Assembly (NCBI GenBank): GCA_000165345.1
Contig: CM000432.1
Span: 256,001 to 320,000 of the forward strand
DNA: 64,000 bases
Direction: 5' to 3'
Each line of letters starts with the position of its first letter. Within the stretch, counting starts at the first letter, position 1. The position numbers and the translations under genes were made by a program. This document shows positions 10,917-45,461 of this stretch, one piece after another. A model generated the notes under the pieces. It made no database searches. It saw only the letters and a list, made by a program, of their open reading frames with translations, and had not been told where the DNA came from.

Positions 10917-10930
10917 GCATGTGCAATGAA
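10917..10930. promoter_or_regulatory. GATGCATGTGCAATG (TGCATG-type) motif just upstream of the membrane-protein ATG
   Basis: GCATG/TGCA palindromic core, recurring in several promoters in this window (see 40082, 27341, 31615, 43967). Confidence 0.3.
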
Positions 10931-11342: not shown

Positions 11343-11366
11343 TGGCGCCAAAGCGCTTTGGCGCCA
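11343..11366. promoter_or_regulatory. Perfect 24-bp palindrome TGGCGCCAAAGCGCTTTGGCGCCA (double E2F-like site)
   Basis: Its reverse complement is identical to itself. Two TTTGGCGCCA half-sites around a central AGCGCT. Sits in the divergent promoter between the membrane-protein gene (start 10892) and the kinase gene (start 11836). The 70-aa ORF 11208..11420 in the track simply reads through it. Confidence 0.6.
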
Positions 11367-11835
11367 AAACGAGCGGTATCTAAAAAAGAAAATGCATGCA
11401 ATATTAAAGAAAAAAAATAATGTATGGCAAAATTTGAGGAAACAAAAATTAAATAGAATTAATAAGTATTAAAGAAGTAATAGTTGTTTTAGATATTTAA
11501 TTATTATTTATTATTAAATCAAAATTTTTATAATTGAAGAGGAAATAAGTATAAAATATTTGACTAATAATGAATAAGATTTGAAAGAAAAGGGAAATAT
11601 AGATCAAGTTTCTAATAAATCTGGCCTTATTTATTTCAGATTTTTACATTCTTTGTTATAAAATAATTCTTAATTAGTATTACATATTACTATTGCAAAA
11701 TTAATTAATTAATAATTAATTAAAGTTATAAATATTAGTAGAAACGACTTCTGGAATATATTAAAAGTAAGGGAGTGGTTTTCTTTTTTCTTTTTTTTTT
11801 GAAATAACTAAATTATTATTGGAATATTAGAAGTT

Positions 11836-14168: not shown

Positions 14169-22476
<8,308 letters not shown>

Positions 22477-26742: not shown

Positions 26743-27579
26743 TTATTTAATTTTTTTAAAAATAATTCCTCTTTTAATTTATAACGAAAAAAAAAAAAAT
26801 TAGAAGTAAATGTTAATTCTAATAAAAAACCTCTTTGACCCTTAATTTTAATTCAATGCTTTATACTTAATTAATTTATTATCATTAATTTCACTATTGA
26901 CATATAATTTTTTTCAAAGTATTAGAACAAAATATTTATTTTATTTTATTTTATTTTTTTCAATTGATCAACTCTTTCTGTAATTAATTAATCAAAATAT
27001 TTTTTTTTTTAATAAAATAGTTGTAAAAAAAAGATATTTATATTTATTACACTGATCCCTTCTATATTAACGCATTTACTTCACATATTAAATATATTTC
27101 TTTGTCTTATTATTATTCTAATTTTTTTATTCCTATCTATTTAAAATTAATTAAAAAAAAAAATCTTTAGTGGTCAAAAAATGACGTGGCAATATTAAAT
27201 ATTTTTTTAAAAATTAATTTAAATAATTTTATGTGGACGAAGATTCTCCAATAAAATATTTTTTTTAATTCAAGATGGATTATATGGACATATTAATTAA
27301 CAAGTTGCAATAGTTCCTATACCGGTGTTTGACAATTTACATGCAGATTTGCATGCACACCACAACAAAAAAATTGACCTAAAAAAATATCTAAAATATA
27401 AAAGTTAAAGAGGAAAAAGGAAAGCTTTCCAATTTTTTCTTCAAGAAGAAGGAATTAATTTGAACTAATTTTGGTAAGTAAAAATTTTTTTTAAAAATTA
27501 ATATTACTTTATTTTTTAATTCGCAAATGTATATAATCATGTGCAATTTATATCAATTAAAAAAAAAAAAATTAAACTT

Positions 27580-31479: not shown

Positions 31480-32102
31480 TTTCATTTAAGTTAAAAACTA
31501 TTTTATTTTATTTTATTTTTTAATCATTAATCCATTATAATTAACATAAATTTATAATTTTTTCTTGTCCACATGAAAAAATAAATATGAATTCCGGACA
31601 CGTAATTTAATTACTTGCATTTGCATGTTGCATGCAAATTTTGGAAAAAATGGTCCACATAAAAAATATAGCAAATAAATAATTCGTTTTTTAAAGAACA
31701 AAATACAAATTAAAACTCTATTAAGAATTTTTTTAATATCTATTTTTTTTTTATTATTTTTTTTTTGAGTTAATATTAAATCAATACTATTTAAGCCAAG
31801 TAAAACTATTAATGTGAAATTATTGGGTAAAAGGTAATAATAAAAAAAAATTGATACTATTTAAACAAATTAAGTGCTGAAGAAATACAACTATACATAA
31901 AATAATTTAATATTAATAGTGATAAAAATAGTAAATACTGTCAAAATATTTCAATTGAAAGTATAATGCACATTTATTTATAAATTATTAATTAATATAT
32001 GTATATATGCATATATAAATATATTAACATATATATATCTATATATATATATATTAATATGTATACAACAGGAAATAATTTAATTTGGAAGACTAGTTAA
32101 AA

Positions 32103-34922: not shown

Positions 34923-35844
34923 ATGAAGAATTTAATTGATATGAAAGATAAAGATGGAGATTTAATTAAAGGTAATTTTATCAGGAACAAATGTTGAATA
35001 AAATTTCATTAAAATATATTAAAAATAATAAAACAAAAACTTTAAACTACCTCCCACTATCTATTTTCTAAAATTATTTTTATTAATGCTTAAAACTCAA
35101 AAATAATAATAATAATATAATTAAATTACACAGCCAACAAAGATTCATTCATACAAGTAATTGTGGAAATGCACCAAAAACTAGGCGAAACTTTTGAATC
35201 AAACTTTAATAAAATAAGGTAAGTCTTAAATTCTTTAAAATAAAAGAAGAATTTTCTTCCTTTATTTTTTTTTAACTTTTATACACGTCATTAATTTATT
35301 GCATGCAATGACTACATGTACTTTCCCGCTCTTAGAGAAATTAATTACAAAATTAATCAAGATATTGAACAAATACAAGTAAGTTTTTTTTTATTTAAAA
35401 CAAACCTATTTAGTTAAAAAGGAGTTTGTTTTAAATAAAATGTTGATGGTAATGAATAGTATATTGATATAGAAAATTCTAAAAGGAAAGGAAGAAACAA
35501 AAAGAACTACTCCAGTAATATCTTCAACATAACTATAAGTATTAATGGCATTTGTGAGCCTTTATAACTTTATTATGTAAAAAAAACAGTTTTCTATATC
35601 AATATATTACCGCCTTACAACTATTACTCGAACAAATCTTATTCACTTACCATTTTCTTCCCTTAAACATTTTATTAAATTACTTGAAACTATAAATTAT
35701 TTATCTAAATTAAAGAACCTAATCACTAATGAAGAAAAAATCCAGAAAGATCTTCAAGAAAGAAACTCGGTCATTAATAATGTACTGAATGACTTTATGA
35801 ACACTATGCAGGCTACCATTAATGATGGGCCATCCAATAAATAG
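34923..35844 (+). CDS. Tentative small 4-exon coiled-coil protein (about 101 aa), join(34923..34971,35134..35218,35336..35378,35716..35844); absent from the ORF track
   Basis: ATG exon MKNLIDMKDKDGDLIK ends in G|GTAATT. The next exon follows ACACAG and ends AATAAAATAAG|GTAAGT. The next follows CTCTTAG and ends ACAAG|TAAGTT. The last follows AATTAAAG and runs open to a TAG: NLITNEEKIQKDLQERNSVINNVLNDFMNTMQATINDGPSNK*. Summed exon length is 306 nt, a multiple of 3. The 337-nt last intron and a possible missing internal exon are uncertain. Confidence 0.35.
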
Positions 35845-35937: not shown

Positions 35938-38900
35938 CTACTTTTCACTTGTTACAATATTTATATTAACATTAGTATTCAAGACTTCATCTTCCACATT
36001 TTTACTACTCTCAACTTCCCCATTGATGATTGGGGATATACTTTGATTTGAAGTATTGAGACAATCTCCTCCGTCTTCCATTCTTTCCTCTCTTTCTTCT
36101 TTTCTTATATTCACATTTAAATTTGTATTACTTCCATCTTTAACTTTTGAACTTAAATTTGCAACAATAATACTATTTGCATTACGTCCAGAAATGCTCA
36201 TATTATTATTTGTATTGTTTCCTCCTCCTCCACTCCTTAATACTGCCTCTCCACTATTCACAGCGTTTAGTCTACACTGAATAGCCAATTTCTTTGCCTC
36301 ATTGAACCCATATTTTTTCACATAAAAATGTCTTGAGTGTCTTTTTCTATTCTGATCATACCATTCTGCTACCCATTCTTGATCTCTAGTCTTCCAATAT
36401 ACACCTGGAATTCCTGATTTATAACTAATTCCTCCCATATTCTTCTTTTTTGGAGATGTTATAGCTTTAATCTTTGAACTTGATGAAGAAGCTGGAGTGG
36501 AAGAAACTGTTGGAGCAGTAGATTCTGAAATTTCCAAAATATTGGCTGAATCTTTTATCATTGAAAAACTTGTTGAGTTTGAAGAAATCGAAGAATCTAC
36601 TGATGATGATGTTACTGATCTTGAAATCTTCTTCTCCTCCATTAAATTATCTGTTATATCTCCATTACTTGTACAATTATTTCCAATAATATTAATATTT
36701 CCATCACTTATACTACCACTGATATTGCTTCCACTATTTTTTAAAAAATTTTCATTAGCTATATTCATATTGTTTTCAATATTAATATTAATATTATTAT
36801 TATTGCTACTATTATTATTATTACTATTATTGCTAAAACTCGAATTTCCAGAAATTAAAGGCTCAAAAGATGTCAATAAGTTACTTATTCCTTGGTTATA
36901 ATTCATCATTTCTTCTCTTAATGGGTCAATTTTTTCCAGATTAATGGCTTCAACCATATTTGTATCGCTTCTAGGAACTAATATTCCATTTTCTTGTGAT
37001 ATTATCTTTTTAATCATTCCATTAATATCCATATTAGTATTATTACCATTATTGTTTTGTTGGCACTGAGACTGAATTTGAAATTGGCTTTGATTCTGAG
37101 ATTGATTTTGAGTTTGGTTCAAATGATTCAGTAATATGTTTTCTGTTAGATTTCCTGGAATATTCTGAAATTGATCTAAATTATTCAAGGATAATGATCC
37201 AAAATTATTATTACTACTTGTCGGTACCGATTTATTAGATCCCATTAAATTCTGTAATATGTTATACATATATTGGCTCTGGTGATTGCTTAGATGATTA
37301 ATATGATTATTTCCAGAATTGAATGTATTATTAATCGTTCCATTAGCTCCACTTGCTTGATTTATTCCAAGCATATTTGCCAAATTCGTATTCAAACTTG
37401 AATAGTTACTAAAATACCCTCCAACTCCATTATTAACTCCATTACCCAGTAATAAACTATTCATCATTTTACTTTTTGTCATTCCTTCAAGAGTAGAATC
37501 ATTTAACATTTGCAAAGGAGATAGATAATTAAAATCAATAGAATTCAACATATTTAAAGATGGTGAATTATTATAATTTCCATTGATATTATTGGTGTTG
37601 TTGTTCTTAGTAGTAAACCCTTCAGAATTATCACCAAAAAATTGATGCTTTAACATATTACCATAATAACTATTCAAATAATTGGAAATCATAGAATTGA
37701 GATTAACATTCATGTTATTAGCGTTATTTATATTACTTGGGCTTGAGCCACTTAATGCTCCATTCAAAAGTAACATATTTGATAGAATCATATTATTGTA
37801 ATCAGTTACCATATTATTGGTACCAACATTTCCGGTATTAGCTCCAAAATTACTGTTATTTGTACCTATAAGTCCATTATAACTGCTGTTATTAGTGCCA
37901 GTATTACTATTATTAGTATTGTTATTATTGCTATTATTATTGTTGCCACCATATAAATATTGCATTAATTGACTTAATAATAGCTGATAACTATTATTTT
38001 GAACAAGTATTGGTTGGCTCCCTTCAGTAGAATTATTATTATTATTATTACTTAAGCCATTTAAAGCAGAGAAGCTAGAACCATTCAAATTAATTAATGA
38101 AGAACTACTATTGCCGTTATTGTTATTATTACTATTACCATCGGCATTCAAGGGATTTATAATTCCAGAATTACCATAATTGTTGAAAATATTAAAACAA
38201 GAATTTGTAATTCCTGAAGAACCAGAGTAATTATTATGATATTTAAATTCTTTATTATTAACATACTCTACTACATTATCTCTCAATTTTTTTTCATTGA
38301 TTAACTTTACCCTCCATTCTATTGCTTTTAATCTTGAAATATCAATTCCATCCTCGCCAATCTCATAAGCAAAAGATTGAGTACATGTTTCATGTGTTAT
38401 TGAATCTAGCCAAACTCCTATCCAGACTTTATTTATTGGATGCCAAAATATTCCCTCATATTCGGCATCTTCTTTTAAATGTTTCATTTCTTCCATAAGT
38501 AACCCAATACCTTCATCACTCATATTATTCATAATTTTTTGTATATTCTTTTTCTCCATCAAATTCATAACAATTGATCTATCATCCTTTAATAAGTATT
38601 CAGGCCTTTCATATTCTGCTGTTCCATACTTTGCAATTCTCATTCCTTTTATACCTCCAATATAATTATGAGAGCCTATTGATGCACCTACTCCAGTCTC
38701 ACCCTGATGGCCACCACCTATATAGCAACTTTTATTCATATTTAAATACATCTTCCCTGTAAGACTAGTTTCATGTAACTTTCTTGCTGTTGCTTTTCCA
38801 TTTTCAATTGCATCAACCCTTGATTTTATTGCCATTTGCTTTGCATCTTCAAAACCATATACTCTTGCTGAAAAGCCGTGAGTAATTCTTCTTCCTGAAA

Positions 38901-39417
38901 TAGAATCACTCCACTGAGCAATCCATCTTTGACTACTTTCTTGCCAATAAACTCCAGGAACCCCACTTTGATGTTCTGCTCTTCTTAATCTAGTTCCAGT
39001 TCCTTTTCTAGTAGACACTATAGAACTATTAAAATCTTTTCTGCCAACTTCCACAGTTGTAACACCCTCCTCGCTGTTCTTTTCCTCATCTGATTTAGAA
39101 TCTTCATCATTAATAGCTTCGTCTTTATTAATAAAACTATCCTCTTGGTTCTGAACTTCTATATAATTCTGCTCCATAGTAACATCATCAATGATATTTT
39201 TAGAATTTTCGTCTGGTGTTTCAACATGATTTTCAATTTGAGATTGGACTTGTTGAATTTTACTATTACCAACTTCAACTTCGTTAGATTTATCAAAATT
39301 TTCACCAATTCCACATGTTGGTGTATCTTCTTGTGTAGAGTCCATAGTAGTATACTGACTCCAGTCTACAACTTCTTTATCAATAAAAACCTTTCCAGTT
39401 TCTAATTTTTCCTCCAT
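35938..39417 (-). CDS. ApiAP2 transcription factor with three AP2 domains (1159 aa)
   Basis: AP2 domains are SGVPGVYWQESSQRWIAQWSDSISGRRITHGFSARVYGFEDAKQMAIKSRVDAIENG, GIFWHPINKVWIGVWLDSITHETCTQSFAYEIGEDGIDISRLKAIEWRVK and SGIPGVYWKTRDQEWVAEWYDQNRKRHSRHFYVKKYGFNEAKKLAIQCRLNAVNSG. All three show the apicomplexan AP2 GVxW...W.A.W....R..F.....G...A...A core. They are separated by a very long Asn/Ser/Gln low-complexity region. Confidence 0.9.
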   Translation of the reverse strand: MEEKLETGKVFIDKEVVDWSQYTTMDSTQEDTPTCGIGENFDKSNEVEVGNSKIQQVQSQIENHVETPDENSKNIIDDVTMEQNYIEVQNQEDSFINKDEAINDEDSKSDEEKNSEEGVTTVEVGRKDFNSSIVSTRKGTGTRLRRAEHQSGVPGVYWQESSQRWIAQWSDSISGRRITHGFSARVYGFEDAKQMAIKSRVDAIENGKATARKLHETSLTGKMYLNMNKSCYIGGGHQGETGVGASIGSHNYIGGIKGMRIAKYGTAEYERPEYLLKDDRSIVMNLMEKKNIQKIMNNMSDEGIGLLMEEMKHLKEDAEYEGIFWHPINKVWIGVWLDSITHETCTQSFAYEIGEDGIDISRLKAIEWRVKLINEKKLRDNVVEYVNNKEFKYHNNYSGSSGITNSCFNIFNNYGNSGIINPLNADGNSNNNNNGNSSSSLINLNGSSFSALNGLSNNNNNNSTEGSQPILVQNNSYQLLLSQLMQYLYGGNNNNSNNNNTNNSNTGTNNSSYNGLIGTNNSNFGANTGNVGTNNMVTDYNNMILSNMLLLNGALSGSSPSNINNANNMNVNLNSMISNYLNSYYGNMLKHQFFGDNSEGFTTKNNNTNNINGNYNNSPSLNMLNSIDFNYLSPLQMLNDSTLEGMTKSKMMNSLLLGNGVNNGVGGYFSNYSSLNTNLANMLGINQASGANGTINNTFNSGNNHINHLSNHQSQYMYNILQNLMGSNKSVPTSSNNNFGSLSLNNLDQFQNIPGNLTENILLNHLNQTQNQSQNQSQFQIQSQCQQNNNGNNTNMDINGMIKKIISQENGILVPRSDTNMVEAINLEKIDPLREEMMNYNQGISNLLTSFEPLISGNSSFSNNSNNNNSSNNNNININIENNMNIANENFLKNSGSNISGSISDGNINIIGNNCTSNGDITDNLMEEKKISRSVTSSSVDSSISSNSTSFSMIKDSANILEISESTAPTVSSTPASSSSSKIKAITSPKKKNMGGISYKSGIPGVYWKTRDQEWVAEWYDQNRKRHSRHFYVKKYGFNEAKKLAIQCRLNAVNSGEAVLRSGGGGNNTNNNMSISGRNANSIIVANLSSKVKDGSNTNLNVNIRKEEREERMEDGGDCLNTSNQSISPIINGEVESSKNVEDEVLNTNVNINIVTSEK

Positions 39418-40081
39418 TTTGAGAATTCACTCAAAAAAATTGCCTTATTTAAATATCAAAATGACTATCTTATATAATAATAGAATAATCTATCAGCTTC
39501 TTAAATATTCCGTATTTTAACTTGCAAATCCAATAGCTTAATAACTAATTTTTGCCAGATTGCTTCTTTAAATTTGAAATTAATCTTGTTTTCAAAATAA
39601 TTCTTCACAAACTCTGCTCTTTTATAAAATTACCTTAATATATTTACATATGTATATATATAAGCATATATATATATATATATATATATGTACATTTATA
39701 CATATATACTTTTTTTTAGTTTTAATCTTTACTTCATATTAATTCAATTAGCTTGTATTATTTATATCTCTAAGACTTTATCCTTCTCTTGTTATAACAC
39801 AACTTAAGAATAAAGAAAAGTCTTAATTATTGCTTCCCAATACTGCTTTGTTTTATTTTGGAAAACTTCTTTAAATATATATTTATATTTTTTGAATATA
39901 AATCAATATTTAGTCATTTAATGACGAACTGCACTTTTATCCACGATTTACTTGTATGTTAACATTTTTTTAAACATTTCTGCATACCTCGTGCCATGTA
40001 AACATATCAATATTATTACTCTTTCCTACATTTACTGCTATTTTAGTATTATTTTCTTTTTTTTTCAGCAATCTATCCTCA

Positions 40082-40105
40082 CATGCGCATGCAAATGCAT
40101 GCAAT
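40082..40105. promoter_or_regulatory. Clustered CATGCGCATGCAAATGCATGCAAT (overlapping GCATGC / TGCATGCA palindromes)
   Basis: Lies about 670 bp upstream of the ApiAP2 ATG, in the only intergenic region serving it. TGCATGCA is the core bound by several apicomplexan AP2 domains (established knowledge). A GGCGGGAA-type site TATGGCGGGAACC (40136-40148) lies 30 bp away. Confidence 0.45.
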
Positions 40106-40291
40106 ACCTACAATGTGGGCAAAAATAATTCCACGTATGGCGGGAACCTGACAAAATTATAAATATTTAAAACAAGGTGCTTGTTTAATTGAAAATAGAC
40201 TAAAGGAAGAGAAAATAATACAGGAAAAAGCTGAAAATCCCCGTGATAATAGTTAAAATTTTAACAATTTGCGATTCTAAGCTAGAATTTA

Positions 40292-41632
40292 TTAAAGCTC
40301 AGTGGATTGATCCCCGTCTCTAATGGATGATTGTATATTAACTCCAATCTCAATCGAATAGTTAATAAAAGTAGTGATAAACATGATGATAAATATAGTT
40401 AGTAAAGTATATTTAATAATGTTTAGGCCAAAGCCAAACATTCCACCATTTTGATTGCTTTTAGCTATATTCATTTGTTTATTATTAGACTTCGCAGAAT
40501 TTTTTCTAGATTTAATTTCTAATACAGAAATGGAATAGTCAGCTCCAGCTGAAATAATATATTCATTAGAATTAAAAAATTGTAGGCCAGTAACTGGGAG
40601 CTCATGAAAAATCCCTTCTTTAAGTAAAGTTAGCTCAGTCAGATTATTTTTGAATATTTTAATTAAGCCAGTGTTAGTACCAACAGCCAAAAGTTTATAA
40701 TCGTCAGAAACAACTAGCACAGAAGATGGTTTATCACAAATCAAATTAGAGGCAATTTGGGCAAATAATATGCGATTATTTGGATTTTCATTTGAATTTT
40801 CTTTAGATATCTTCATATTCCAAACTGTCATAAAGGATGAGCCTCTGATTTCATGTAATAACATTGAAACAATATACTGTTGTCTATCATTATTTTTCTG
40901 TCTTCTAGGGCTATTTAACCTTCCATTCTCAATAAAACGGCATTGCCTCACTAAATAATTCCCATTCTTCATCGGTATCGTGAATTTTTTAAAAATATCT
41001 CCAGAATTATACTCATGTACGATAATTGTACCATTTCTATTTGTTGAAATGATAAATTTATTATCTGGAGATATATCCAAATCCAAAATTTCATTTTCAT
41101 GTCCATGAAGCTCCTTCATTTCTAATGGAATGATTTCTCGTGGATTTTCTGAATCAATATTTAATTTCCAAACACGGACAATATTGTCAGTTCCACCAGT
41201 AATTAGGAATTCTCCATTTTTTGAAAACCTACAAACATTTTGTTTACCTTTCTTATTTCCATCCCAGACTGTTTGAAACTGAAGATACATTCTAATTGAC
41301 TTCCCTTGCTTTTCTTCTTCTATATAAAATAATATACAACAATCTCTTATTCCACCTGCTACTAAATTTAATTTGTTATTAAAGCACATACTATCTAATA
41401 CTCCATTTTGTTTAGTTGTATTATAAATATATTTTAACATTAAAGAACTTTCAGCAGAAATTTTATCATTTGCATTTAATTTCTGACACTCTACCTCACA
41501 ATCTTTCAATTCATATAGTTCTATTTGGTCTTCTATTCCATAATCTTTTCCTCCACCTCCTCCACTTAAAATAATGGAATCTCTTGTACAGCATAGCCCA
41601 AAAATGGGATAATCCGCATAATATATTGGCAT
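40292..41632 (-). CDS. Sec12/PREB-like Sar1 guanine-nucleotide exchange factor (WD40, type II membrane anchor)
   Basis: The N-terminal ILSGGGGGKDYGI matches the PREB AAGGGGAAKTGI loop. SKNGEFLITGGTDNIVRVWKL matches human PREB [21 protein letters not shown]. There is a single C-terminal TM helix YTLLTIFIIMFITTFINYSI followed by a short lumenal tail. Confidence 0.75.
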   Translation of the reverse strand: MPIYYADYPIFGLCCTRDSIILSGGGGGKDYGIEDQIELYELKDCEVECQKLNANDKISAESSLMLKYIYNTTKQNGVLDSMCFNNKLNLVAGGIRDCCILFYIEEEKQGKSIRMYLQFQTVWDGNKKGKQNVCRFSKNGEFLITGGTDNIVRVWKLNIDSENPREIIPLEMKELHGHENEILDLDISPDNKFIISTNRNGTIIVHEYNSGDIFKKFTIPMKNGNYLVRQCRFIENGRLNSPRRQKNNDRQQYIVSMLLHEIRGSSFMTVWNMKISKENSNENPNNRILFAQIASNLICDKPSSVLVVSDDYKLLAVGTNTGLIKIFKNNLTELTLLKEGIFHELPVTGLQFFNSNEYIISAGADYSISVLEIKSRKNSAKSNNKQMNIAKSNQNGGMFGFGLNIIKYTLLTIFIIMFITTFINYSIEIGVNIQSSIRDGDQSTEL

Positions 41633-43903: not shown

Positions 43904-44412
43904 TTGTCCACATTAAAAATAATAATAACGATTACGTGTGCAATTAAATTCAATATTTAAATCAAGTGCATGCGCATATGCATGTTATTGGACAATTTTT
44001 TTCATGCACAAAAAAAAAAAAAAAATGCAATTTTTTAAAAAATTAGTTAAGAATTAAGTTATTTTTAGGAATGGAGAAATCAGTTGAAGATTTTATTATG
44101 AAAAATTTCTTGATAAAATTGAAAAAAAGAAATGAATAAAGAATATACAAATGTATTGGAATAATTAAATTTTAAGTCAAATGTAATTGAAAGAAAACCA
44201 ATTATTAGCTAATAATTGGAATTATTTGAGAGTCGAAAGATATCGTAAATTTTAACTTGGGAAATTCAATACTATTTTTATCAACGATCTCTTGAACAAA
44301 ATCATGTGAATACTTACAATCAATACTATAAAAGAATATATTCTCAGTATTTATTATATTTGCGCAAAAATTTATTGAATCTTTGATTGATTTTGAATTA
44401 ATCGAAATTGAT

Positions 44413-45342
44413 TCATTTGGGACAATTGGGAAAGATGAGTATATTAATAAGTTGAATCGTTTTTAAAAATGCTAAAGTTTCTTTTGGAATAATAGAATAT
44501 CTTGGAATAATGCAAATCAATTTTTTATCACTTGCATATTCAATACAATATCCAGAAGAAAGTTTATTATCTGAATCAATAAAAAATAATGATGTAATTT
44601 TTATTTCATTGGAATATTGAATAATCACTGGATTCAAAGTTAAGTTTTTATCAATTTCATCACTTATCTCAATATCATTATTCAAGCTAATATAATCATT
44701 AAATTTGGATATTGAATCAATTTTAGTAACATCTGGAGAATTTCTTGGATCAAGTATGTTAAGTTGAACACAACCAACTTTTGTTTTTGATTTTAAATCA
44801 TCTTTTAAAGAATAATTAATTATGTAACTATACCAGTCATTAAATTTGTTTAATGCAGAAGATGTAAAATATATTGGTACTCTAATTTTTGGCTCATAAA
44901 ATACTATTCCATCGTTTCCCACAGGTCTTTCATATTTTTGAACTTCTCTTGTTTCATCTATTCCATTAAAAGATGATTCATCCGAACCCATACAAAAAAT
45001 GGCATCCAATCTATTAATATTTGCAGGTATTGCATATTCTAGCATTGATATTCTAAATGTTGAGCCAATTTCAAAAAGAAATGTATCATGGCGTTCACTT
45101 TCAGAACTATTTAAATTACTAACTGGATTCTTAATTAAAATAGAAAATGGATTACGTACATTTTTATTCTTCATCTTAATTGACTCTTGACATATACCAC
45201 AAAATGGGTCGTTTCCTTTATTAACATTATCTATATTTTTAAATACATGCTCAAGATTTGGCGTACCTTGTTCGGTACCAGAACCTAAGAAAAGAATAAA
45301 GCTACTCATATCTCTTGTTGGCTTATGAGAATGTGCATGCAT
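44413..45342 (-). CDS. MBL-fold-like pseudoenzyme (paralog 2 of 42153..43217), metal-binding histidines lost
   Basis: MSSFILFLGSGTEQGTPN parallels paralog 1 KLPCGILFVGTGVSSSVP. FLFEIGSTFRISML...LDAIFCMGSDESSFNG aligns with ILIDLGKSFREAAI...IDSVILTHFHNDAVAG, so the HxHxDH position reads MGSDES. Two candidate ATGs (45342 or 45309). Confidence 0.6.
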   Translation of the reverse strand: MHAHSHKPTRDMSSFILFLGSGTEQGTPNLEHVFKNIDNVNKGNDPFCGICQESIKMKNKNVRNPFSILIKNPVSNLNSSESERHDTFLFEIGSTFRISMLEYAIPANINRLDAIFCMGSDESSFNGIDETREVQKYERPVGNDGIVFYEPKIRVPIYFTSSALNKFNDWYSYIINYSLKDDLKSKTKVGCVQLNILDPRNSPDVTKIDSISKFNDYISLNNDIEISDEIDKNLTLNPVIIQYSNEIKITSLFFIDSDNKLSSGYCIEYASDKKLICIIPRYSIIPKETLAFLKTIQLINILIFPNCPK

Positions 45343-45461
45343 GTGGGGAGGATATTCGTATTTAAATCTTCCCTTTTTTTTAAATCTCCAGAATCAAAAA
45401 CTTAGCATTCCATCTGTATTACGACTTAATTGGATTAACTTATAGGTTAAAATCAGTTGAA

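Follow-up and report, generated by a model that had tools for sequence, protein, structure and literature searches.

A conserved 252-bp non-coding module upstream of AP2-F in Cryptosporidium parvum as a candidate control region for female-gamete transcription

Introduction

What switches on AP2-F in the female gametes of Cryptosporidium parvum? The AP2-F gene (cgd4_1110) encodes an ApiAP2 protein that is expressed in female gametes only, has proved refractory to knockout, and is needed for oocyst shedding and for the transcription of crystalloid-body and meiosis genes (Tandel 2023). We addressed this question in a stretch of 64,000 nucleotides of C. parvum chromosome 4, hereafter called the window. 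A first-pass annotation of the window, made from the sequence alone, had noticed a dense cluster of TGCATGCA/GCATGC palindromes next to an E2F-like site upstream of a gene with three AP2 domains, and had raised the possibility of auto- or cross-regulation. The analysis described here leads us to lean, on balance, towards the view that this cluster is the core part of a cis-regulatory module of 252 bp (39905-40156, minus strand) which would control AP2-F transcription in female gametes.

Earlier publications describe AP2-F, the motif families concerned and the female TGCATGYR regulon. BGCATGCAH (AP2_1), the E2F-like Motif 4 TTTGGCGGGAAV and the G-box DTGTGGGG are catalogued among the over-represented upstream motifs of C. 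parvum (Oberstaller 2013). The AP2_1 or TGCATGCA element of Apicomplexa is bound by PfAP2-EXP/PF14_0633, PbAP2-Sp and C. parvum cgd2_3490; the earlier description of TGCATGCA as a core bound by apicomplexan AP2 domains is thus documented in the literature. Recently, TGCATG(T/C)(G/A), or TGCATGYR, was found to be the most enriched motif in 65 macrogamont-specific promoters, and since the expression of the female-specific cgd2_3490 tracks this 65-gene set, cgd2_3490 was proposed as its regulator (Hasan et al. 2024). E2F motifs dominate the open chromatin of sporozoites as seen by ATAC-seq (assay for transposase-accessible chromatin with sequencing) and show no stage bias genome-wide.

Results

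The coding sequence at 35938-39417 on the minus strand, defined by its open reading frame (ORF) and translation, encodes a protein of 1159 aa. Since this protein exactly matches C. parvum Iowa II EAK87634.1 / CPATCC_001594, we identify the gene as cgd4_1110, whose product shares 96% identity with C. hominis CHM_4g1110. Pfam AP2 matched the protein with E=7e-29 and reported two AP2 stretches, and a third, divergent AP2-like stretch is seen in the translation, in agreement with the three domains published for cgd4_1110. As the first-pass annotation had stated, the gene starts at 39417 and has a single upstream intergenic region. This sole upstream spacer occupies 39418-40291 (874 bp), and its far end is the stop codon of a same-strand gene for a WD40 protein (cgd4_1120; 40292-41632, minus strand), which was recognized from its ORF and WD40 Pfam matches.

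Checking the window sequence placed CATGCGCATGCAAATGCATGCAAT at 40082-40105 and TATGGCGGGAACC at 40136-40148 on the plus strand, so the cluster and the neighboring site had been reported exactly to the base. Read in the sense of the gene, the TGCATG cluster (40077-40103, minus strand) is TGCATGCA tt TGCATGCG CATGTGAGG and lies 660-686 bp upstream of the AP2-F ATG. It is made up of two TGCATGYR matches 10 bp apart, TGCATGCA at 40096-40103 and TGCATGCG at 40086-40093, both of which conform to BGCATGCAH / TGCATG(T/C)(G/A), together with a third site that is a near-match, CGCATGTG. Counts in the window were compared with the expectation from dinucleotide shuffles. TGCATGCA was present 7 times against 0.58 expected, a count reached in 0 of 100 shuffles, and TGCATGYR 24 times against 3.7; the corresponding figures were 10 against 3.1 for GCATGC, 3 against 0.08 for the E2F-like TTCCCGCC, 16 against 0.64 for the E2F consensus TTTSSCGC, and 7 against 1.97 for TGTGGGS. 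TGCATG/CATGCA sites were 3.4 times denser outside ORFs (1.16/kb) than inside them (0.34/kb), and the further GCATG positions listed by the first-pass annotation (near 10917, 27341, 31615 and 43967) are TGCATG-type sites, all outside ORFs. The cluster therefore has the two attributes of the AP2_1 element, an upstream non-coding place and over-representation.

We compared the orthologous loci of C. hominis, C. meleagridis, chipmunk genotype I, C. canis, C. felis, C. xiaoi, C. ryanae and C. andersoni, which with C. parvum make nine species. One more locus was left out, its 518 bp upstream of the gene stopping short of the expected position of the cluster. The order WD40 gene, then AP2-F, is kept in all nine species, and at the homologous position each of them has 2-3 TGCATG/CATGCA sites, the rest of each spacer being free of such sites. 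A cluster of at least 2 sites within 40 bp, which is present in 9/9 species, arises in 0.1-1.2% of the dinucleotide shuffles of each species' spacer. Most lineages space the sites 10-11 bp apart; the distance is 15 bp in C. canis, and 4 and 37 bp in C. andersoni. In the intestinal-clade species the sites are co-oriented, with TGCATGY on the sense strand of the gene. This is the footprint of an AP2_1 element maintained by selection. The motif is short, and one might suppose that an AT-poor palindrome arose by chance in so long a spacer; conservation in nine species refutes this explanation, which is also contradicted by the motif excess, the shuffle test, the identity of the surrounding module relative to its flanks and the local association described below, and we give it a negligible probability.

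In a multiple alignment, the conserved sequence extends well beyond the cluster and forms the non-coding module of 252 bp. Thus the element noticed originally is genuine and has been selectively maintained upstream of an ApiAP2 gene, but the approximately 70 bp first described are only part of a composite whole. Identity to the C. parvum window, given first for the module and then for the sequence from the module to the ATG, was 100% and 98% in C. hominis, 97.6% and 92% in C. meleagridis, 94.5% and 78% in chipmunk genotype I, 86% and 54% in C. canis, 73% and 25% in C. felis, 61% and 27% in C. xiaoi, 61% and 24% in C. ryanae, and 37% and 10% in C. andersoni. In every comparison the module was conserved far above both flanks (Fisher p 0.004 to 1e-43). 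It is also better kept than most of the AP2-F protein itself, the identity of which to the C. parvum protein is 59% in C. canis and 43% in C. felis. When eight spacers of the syntenic block were compared, 17.7% of the columns of the AP2-F upstream spacer were invariant in five deep lineages; among the other spacers without coding sequence the proportion was 4.4-7.8% in five of six and 14.9% in the sixth, a spacer of 94 bp. Invariant-column counts and module-versus-flank identity were retained as the measures of conservation, exact shared 10-mer coverage having been dropped as too noisy in AT-rich DNA. The spacer downstream of AP2-F was unusable as a non-coding control, its conservation being explained by a hidden plus-strand gene (see below).

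The module is composed of several distinct blocks. Block A (40147-40114, in gene sense) reads GTTCCCGCC-ATACGTGGAA-ttattttt-GCCCACA and contains an E2F-like site, ACGTGG and, on the opposite strand, a G-box-like TGTGGG. The E2F-like site is TTCCCGCC on the minus strand (GGCGGGAA on the plus strand) at 40139-40146. It probably belongs to the documented Cryptosporidium E2F-like family (Motifs 3 and 4 of Oberstaller 2013), which it resembles in its GGCGGGAA-type sequence, its upstream place and its strong excess in the window, but the C. parvum copy is one base off the consensus: GTTCCCGC agrees with TTTSSCGC at 7/8 positions, and TATGGCGGGAAC with the published Motif 4 at 11/12. TTTSSCGC is matched exactly in C. 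meleagridis (TTTTCCCGCC) and C. canis (TTTGCCGCC). The form TTCCCGCC is kept in C. parvum, C. hominis, C. meleagridis, chipmunk genotype I, C. felis and C. ryanae, with TTTGCCGCC in C. canis and TTCCCGCT in C. xiaoi; the core TTCCCGC (TTTGCCGC in C. canis) is conserved in all eight intestinal-clade sequences. The site was not found in the orthologous spacer of C. andersoni, another difference from the published motif. Directly 3' of it, the ACGTGG element (40131-40136, minus strand), to which no factor is assigned, is part of CCATACGTGGAA, near-invariant in the eight intestinal-clade sequences. The G-box-like TGTGGGC (gene sense GCCCACA; 40114-40120, plus strand) resembles the published G-box Motif 2, DTGTGGGG, and its CCCACA is invariant in 5/5 deep lineages. 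The elements of block A and the TGCATG sites are packed into about 75 bp in the gene order E2F-like site, ACGTGG, CCCACA and 2-3 TGCATGY. A comparable mixture of CCGCC, CCCAC/GTGGG and TGCATG elements is found in the promoters of the 65-gene set (Hasan et al. 2024).

Nearer to the gene, block C (40011-40035, minus strand; GTAAATGTAGGAAAGAGTAATAATA) contains TAGGAAAGA, and block D (39986-40004, minus strand; TGTTTACATGGCACGAGGT) contains CACGAG, each invariant in the five deep lineages. Block D holds ACATG together with a short upstream ATG, the conserved form being ACATG(G/A)CACGAG. Block E, AAAAAAATGTTAAC in gene sense, lies between blocks D and F. Block F (39913-39949, minus strand; AAATCGTGGATAAAAGTGCAGTTCGTCATTAAATGAC) ends in a GTCA-N5-TGAC inverted repeat; its AAATCG and GTTCGTCA are invariant in the five deep lineages, and the inverted repeat survives in C. 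andersoni as GTCAGTTGCTGAC. No factor is assigned to blocks C, D or F. Within the module there are ACATG/CATGT variants, which represent the wider AP2_1-like family.

Beyond close relatives, conservation collapses 3' of block F. What follows, 39418-39904 on the minus strand, is the presumed 5' leader between the module and the ATG; it is 487 bp long, has 20% G+C and contains 5 upstream ATGs. A (TA)n/(TG)n microsatellite is present within it at 39643-39711.

Conserved non-coding DNA may owe its conservation to a coding, structural or RNA-level role. A coding exon or upstream ORF was rejected since six-frame pieces of the spacer, searched with tblastn, matched the orthologous spacers in all frames and almost exclusively in C. 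canis and C. felis. A structured RNA was likewise rejected. The consensus fold over 263 columns had an energy of -16 kcal/mol with an unfavorable covariation term (+1.35), giving no conserved RNA structure, and no Rfam family was found for the spacer, in which the only hits were miRNA models far below threshold on the (TA)n repeat. The module might nevertheless be transcribed and act in the RNA, as a 5' leader for translational repression in macrogamonts or through upstream ATGs. Translational repression accompanies female differentiation (Hasan et al. 2024), the presumed leader is long and rich in upstream ATGs, and the conserved motif of block D includes an ATG. Against this, neither conserved secondary structure nor covariation was detected in the module, the length of the upstream ORFs and the position of their stops vary between species, the block D ATG is absent from C. 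andersoni, and what is conserved consists of palindromes or of matches to known DNA-binding motifs. We therefore consider an RNA-level role very unlikely, and a conserved promoter or enhancer of AP2-F is the best-supported interpretation of what the module may be.

Which of the two flanking genes would the module serve? According to the tables of Hasan et al. 2024, cgd4_1110 transcripts rise from 0-2.5 transcripts per million (TPM) at 18 hours post infection (hpi) to 183-821 at 48 hpi, and stand at about 500 at 72 hpi. They are enriched in females (log2 6.6) and change by log2 -2.1 to -6.5 with 8 differentiation inhibitors (their S2/S3), so that AP2-F is both female-specific and lowered by the inhibitors, as expected of a member of the regulon. 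The WD40 gene cgd4_1120 is constitutive and declining, with about 150 TPM at 18 hpi and some 20 left at 72 hpi. Since this profile is the opposite of that of AP2-F, the module most likely serves AP2-F. We also considered that it belongs to the WD40 gene, as a 3'-end or termination element or as a bidirectional promoter of an antisense long non-coding RNA (lncRNA) over cgd4_1120. The module begins close behind the WD40 stop codon; antisense lncRNAs of C. parvum mostly begin at 3' ends, their top upstream motifs being E2F and ApiAP2_1 and their promoters often bidirectional; and WD40 mRNA drops while AP2-F rises. On the other hand, the accessible part of the supplements of Li et al. 2021 lists no lncRNA for cgd4_1110, cgd4_1120 or cgd4_1100, the motif content is of the promoter type, and a bidirectional role would add to the control of AP2-F rather than replace it. 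In our estimation, assignment to the WD40 gene has a low probability.

If TGCATG sites have to do with sexual-stage expression, this should be visible at neighboring genes. We counted TGCATG sites per spacer across the syntenic block in seven species, taking expression from published tables. Upstream of sexual-stage genes the counts were 3, 3, 1, 4, 3, 2 and 3 for cgd4_1133, 2, 2, 2, 3, 3, 3 and 3 for AP2-F, and 2, 2, 1, 2, 2, 2 and 0 for cgd4_1100; the promoters of two non-female genes and two 3'-3' spacers had 0-1. TGCATG sites are thus associated locally with sexual-stage genes.

Several of these neighboring sites merit description in their own right. Three TGCATG-type sites at 43967-44008 lie upstream of a small 121-aa gene, cgd4_1133 by gene order, whose late-female transcript, at up to 5730 TPM with S-1255, ranks among those induced most strongly; its orthologous spacers, between a 367-aa and the 121-aa gene, hold 1-4 sites in 7/7 species. 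TGCATGTTGCATGCA at 31622-31636 is located 470 bp upstream of cgd4_1100, a START-like, female-specific gene, with 1-2 sites in 6/7 species. Between cgd4_1140-like and cgd4_1150-like genes, TGCATGCATGTGGGG at 45334-45348 is an overlapping AP2_1 and G-box composite, and the TGCATGTGGGG arrangement recurs in the AP2-F module of C. canis and in the cgd4_1133 spacer of C. felis. Another pairing of E2F and AP2_1 elements occurs in a divergent promoter at 11345-11400, where a palindromic E2F site (TTTGGCGC on both strands, 11357-11368), accompanied by another E2F site at 11345, is 25-50 bp from TGCATGCA at 11393.

We then asked which ApiAP2 might act on the cluster. In the accessible part of the published protein-binding array study, the binders of TGCAT are cgd8_3230, cgd1_3520, cgd5_4250 and cgd2_3490, the second of which is reported to bind the G-box as well. 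Of these, cgd2_3490 is the best candidate, as it is female-specific, is placed earlier than AP2-F among the clusters of the single-cell atlas (15-18 and 16-17, respectively, in a 2025 review) and is the proposed TGCATGYR regulator of macrogamonts. Since four ApiAP2s bind TGCAT, cgd2_3490 is nonetheless a candidate rather than a demonstrated factor. One of the other three could be the main occupant of the sites, perhaps repressing AP2-F in asexual stages, and might or might not give way to cgd2_3490 later. The four binders are timed differently, cgd8_3230 being asexual; G-box-like elements, which cgd1_3520 might recognize, adjoin the TGCATG sites in the module; and AP2-F is essentially off at 18 hpi. 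Yet there is no evidence of repression by any Cryptosporidium ApiAP2, and cgd2_3490 was alone in following the TGCATGYR regulon when inhibitors or inducer were applied (Hasan et al. 2024). We regard occupation by another TGCAT binder as unlikely.

Positive autoregulation, in which AP2-F would bind its own TGCATG cluster and lock in its expression in the manner of Plasmodium AP2-G, has to be weighed at the same point. A 2025 review table gives the primary motif of cgd4_1110 as 'AP2_1-like', a family to which the ACATG/CATGT variants inside the module also belong. Domain 3 of AP2-F aligns to the TGCATGCA-binding domain of PF14_0633 (PDB 3IGM) with E=2.3e-5. By our reading of the alignment, it keeps three of the four residues that we take to be base contacts. 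The label of the review is loose, however, as it is also applied to cgd4_3820, a binder of GGTGCACC. In the accessible part of the array study, cgd4_1110 is missing from the four TGCAT binders, cgd4_1110_D2 has no motif, and the specificity of D3 is unlike that of PFE0840c_D2, whose other orthologue, cgd8_3230, does bind TGCAT. Moreover, parasites in which the COWP1 promoter took the place of the native AP2-F promoter were viable (Tandel 2023), which makes a loop through that native promoter dispensable. On the literature, then, AP2-F does not seem to carry its own binding motif upstream of its own gene, and autoregulation appears improbable. Of the two modes of regulation suggested originally, cross-regulation fits the literature on the macrogamont motif, while autoregulation finds no support in the published arrays.

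The hidden gene downstream of AP2-F is a conserved multi-exon ORF of about 143 aa. It lies on the plus strand at approximately 34923-35841, with the AP2-F stop codon on one side and a small annotated cgd4_1103-like gene on the other. Its exons, assembled by eye, are roughly 34923-34971, 35129-35213, 35337-35380 and 35588-35841, with GTAAGT/GTAATT donors. Pieces of it match the orthologous spacer in C. canis, C. felis, C. xiaoi, C. ryanae and C. andersoni in a frame-specific way, in contrast to the all-frame matches of the upstream spacer; for the piece 35121-35219 the amino-acid identity is 93% in C. canis and 63% in C. andersoni. The NCBI annotations of the compared loci call no gene there, and no Pfam family was found. 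This is probably a gene missed by annotation and convergent with AP2-F. A pair of motifs 15 bp apart at 35300-35329, TGCATGCA (35300) and TTTCCCGC (35322), had been considered as a second regulatory module and was rejected, as it falls in intron 2 of this gene. The pair overlaps the polypyrimidine tract (TTTCCCGCTCTTAG) and is probably no promoter element. Consequently, not every motif match in a supposed spacer is regulatory.

Other neighbors were assigned by order and domain content: Bud13 is cgd4_1090, thioredoxin cgd4_1080 and metallo-beta-lactamase cgd4_1130, the WD40 gene having been named cgd4_1120 on the same basis. At 14169-22476 on the plus strand, two long ORFs (1862 and 915 aa) in different frames overlap by about 30 bases, suggesting one very large gene with a short intron or a frameshift inside; it is probably that of the nucleolar pre-ribosomal protein cgd4_1020.

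Discussion

The observations made here suggest how AP2-F may be switched on. The E2F-like site would act as a general promoter-opening element, as it appears to do genome-wide; since E2F motifs lack stage bias, it probably confers promoter competence and not female specificity. Stage specificity would come from the TGCATG repeats, about one helical turn apart in most lineages, through recruitment of a TGCATGCA-binding ApiAP2, with cgd2_3490 the best candidate; the four conserved blocks without assigned specificity come after them. From motif, conservation and expression order we infer the favored arrangement, cross-regulation of AP2-F by cgd2_3490, and hence a putative cascade from cgd2_3490 to AP2-F and on to crystalloid-body and meiosis genes. 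Which proteins bind, whether they activate or repress, and where transcription starts are presumptions of this scheme.

Several observations sit uneasily with control of AP2-F by cgd2_3490 through this module. The module is 488-739 bp from the AP2-F ATG and only 136 bp from the WD40 stop codon. A significant induction of cgd4_1110 by S-1255 was not found in the tables of Hasan et al. 2024, and since a rise with this inducer was the rule for inclusion, cgd4_1110 stands outside the 65-gene TGCATGYR set. AP2 motifs were not found in the open chromatin of sporozoites, which are a different stage. The gene cgd4_1070 has a TGCATG cluster at 27340-27357 and yet is not female-specific. A search for cgd2_3490 orthologues with the AP2 domain of PF14_0633 as query returned one unrelated short match. 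Finally, there is the number of ApiAP2s that share TGCAT.

With respect to the AP2_1 / TGCATGYR macrogamont motif, AP2-F differs in its absence from the 65-gene set. Its predicted sites are kept throughout the genus and form part of a more extensive conserved module.

In Plasmodium, the ap2-g gene reportedly has clustered AP2-G motifs upstream of it that form a positive feedback loop. The likeness to AP2-F is that of an ApiAP2-motif cluster upstream of an ApiAP2 gene governing sexual development; the difference is that the motif there is the factor's own (GTAC-type). TGCAT is not among the specificities given for AP2-F in the published arrays, so its wiring looks like a cascade and not a loop. 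The Plasmodium female/zygote cascade runs from AP2-G to AP2-FG and then to AP2-O/AP2-Z. AP2-F would resemble it in the sequential use of factors, with the motif of an earlier factor upstream of the gene for the next. Unlike that system, the Cryptosporidium factors are not one-to-one orthologues of those of Plasmodium, and the link from cgd2_3490 to AP2-F is a proposed one.

A description of the site upstream of AP2-F was not found in the literature searched. What seem new are this particular site, its conservation throughout the genus including the gastric C. andersoni, and the extent and composition of the module with its four unassigned blocks. A more ambitious interpretation, which we put forward tentatively and think possible though doubtful, is that the module is a genus-wide developmental enhancer. 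It would integrate E2F/DP, a G-box-binding ApiAP2 (for example the female-specific cgd8_810), cgd2_3490 as the TGCATGCA binder and up to four further factors, acting on ACGTGG, TAGGAAAGA, ACATGRCACGAG and GTCA-N5-TGAC. If this were true, the module would be the first cis-regulatory node to have been mapped in the female program of Cryptosporidium, and its unassigned blocks would point to DNA-binding specificities outside the current motif catalogue.

More generally, footprinting across Cryptosporidium genomes resolves regulatory blocks to the level of single motifs. At AP2-F it provides a short, precisely bounded and evolutionarily supported target for promoter editing, together with the wiring hypothesis that cgd2_3490 acts on AP2-F through 2-3 TGCATGY sites. 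The question of what switches on AP2-F thereby becomes directly testable with the conditional genetics available in C. parvum. Since AP2-F is essential for oocyst shedding, the answer bears on the transmission of a major childhood diarrheal pathogen.

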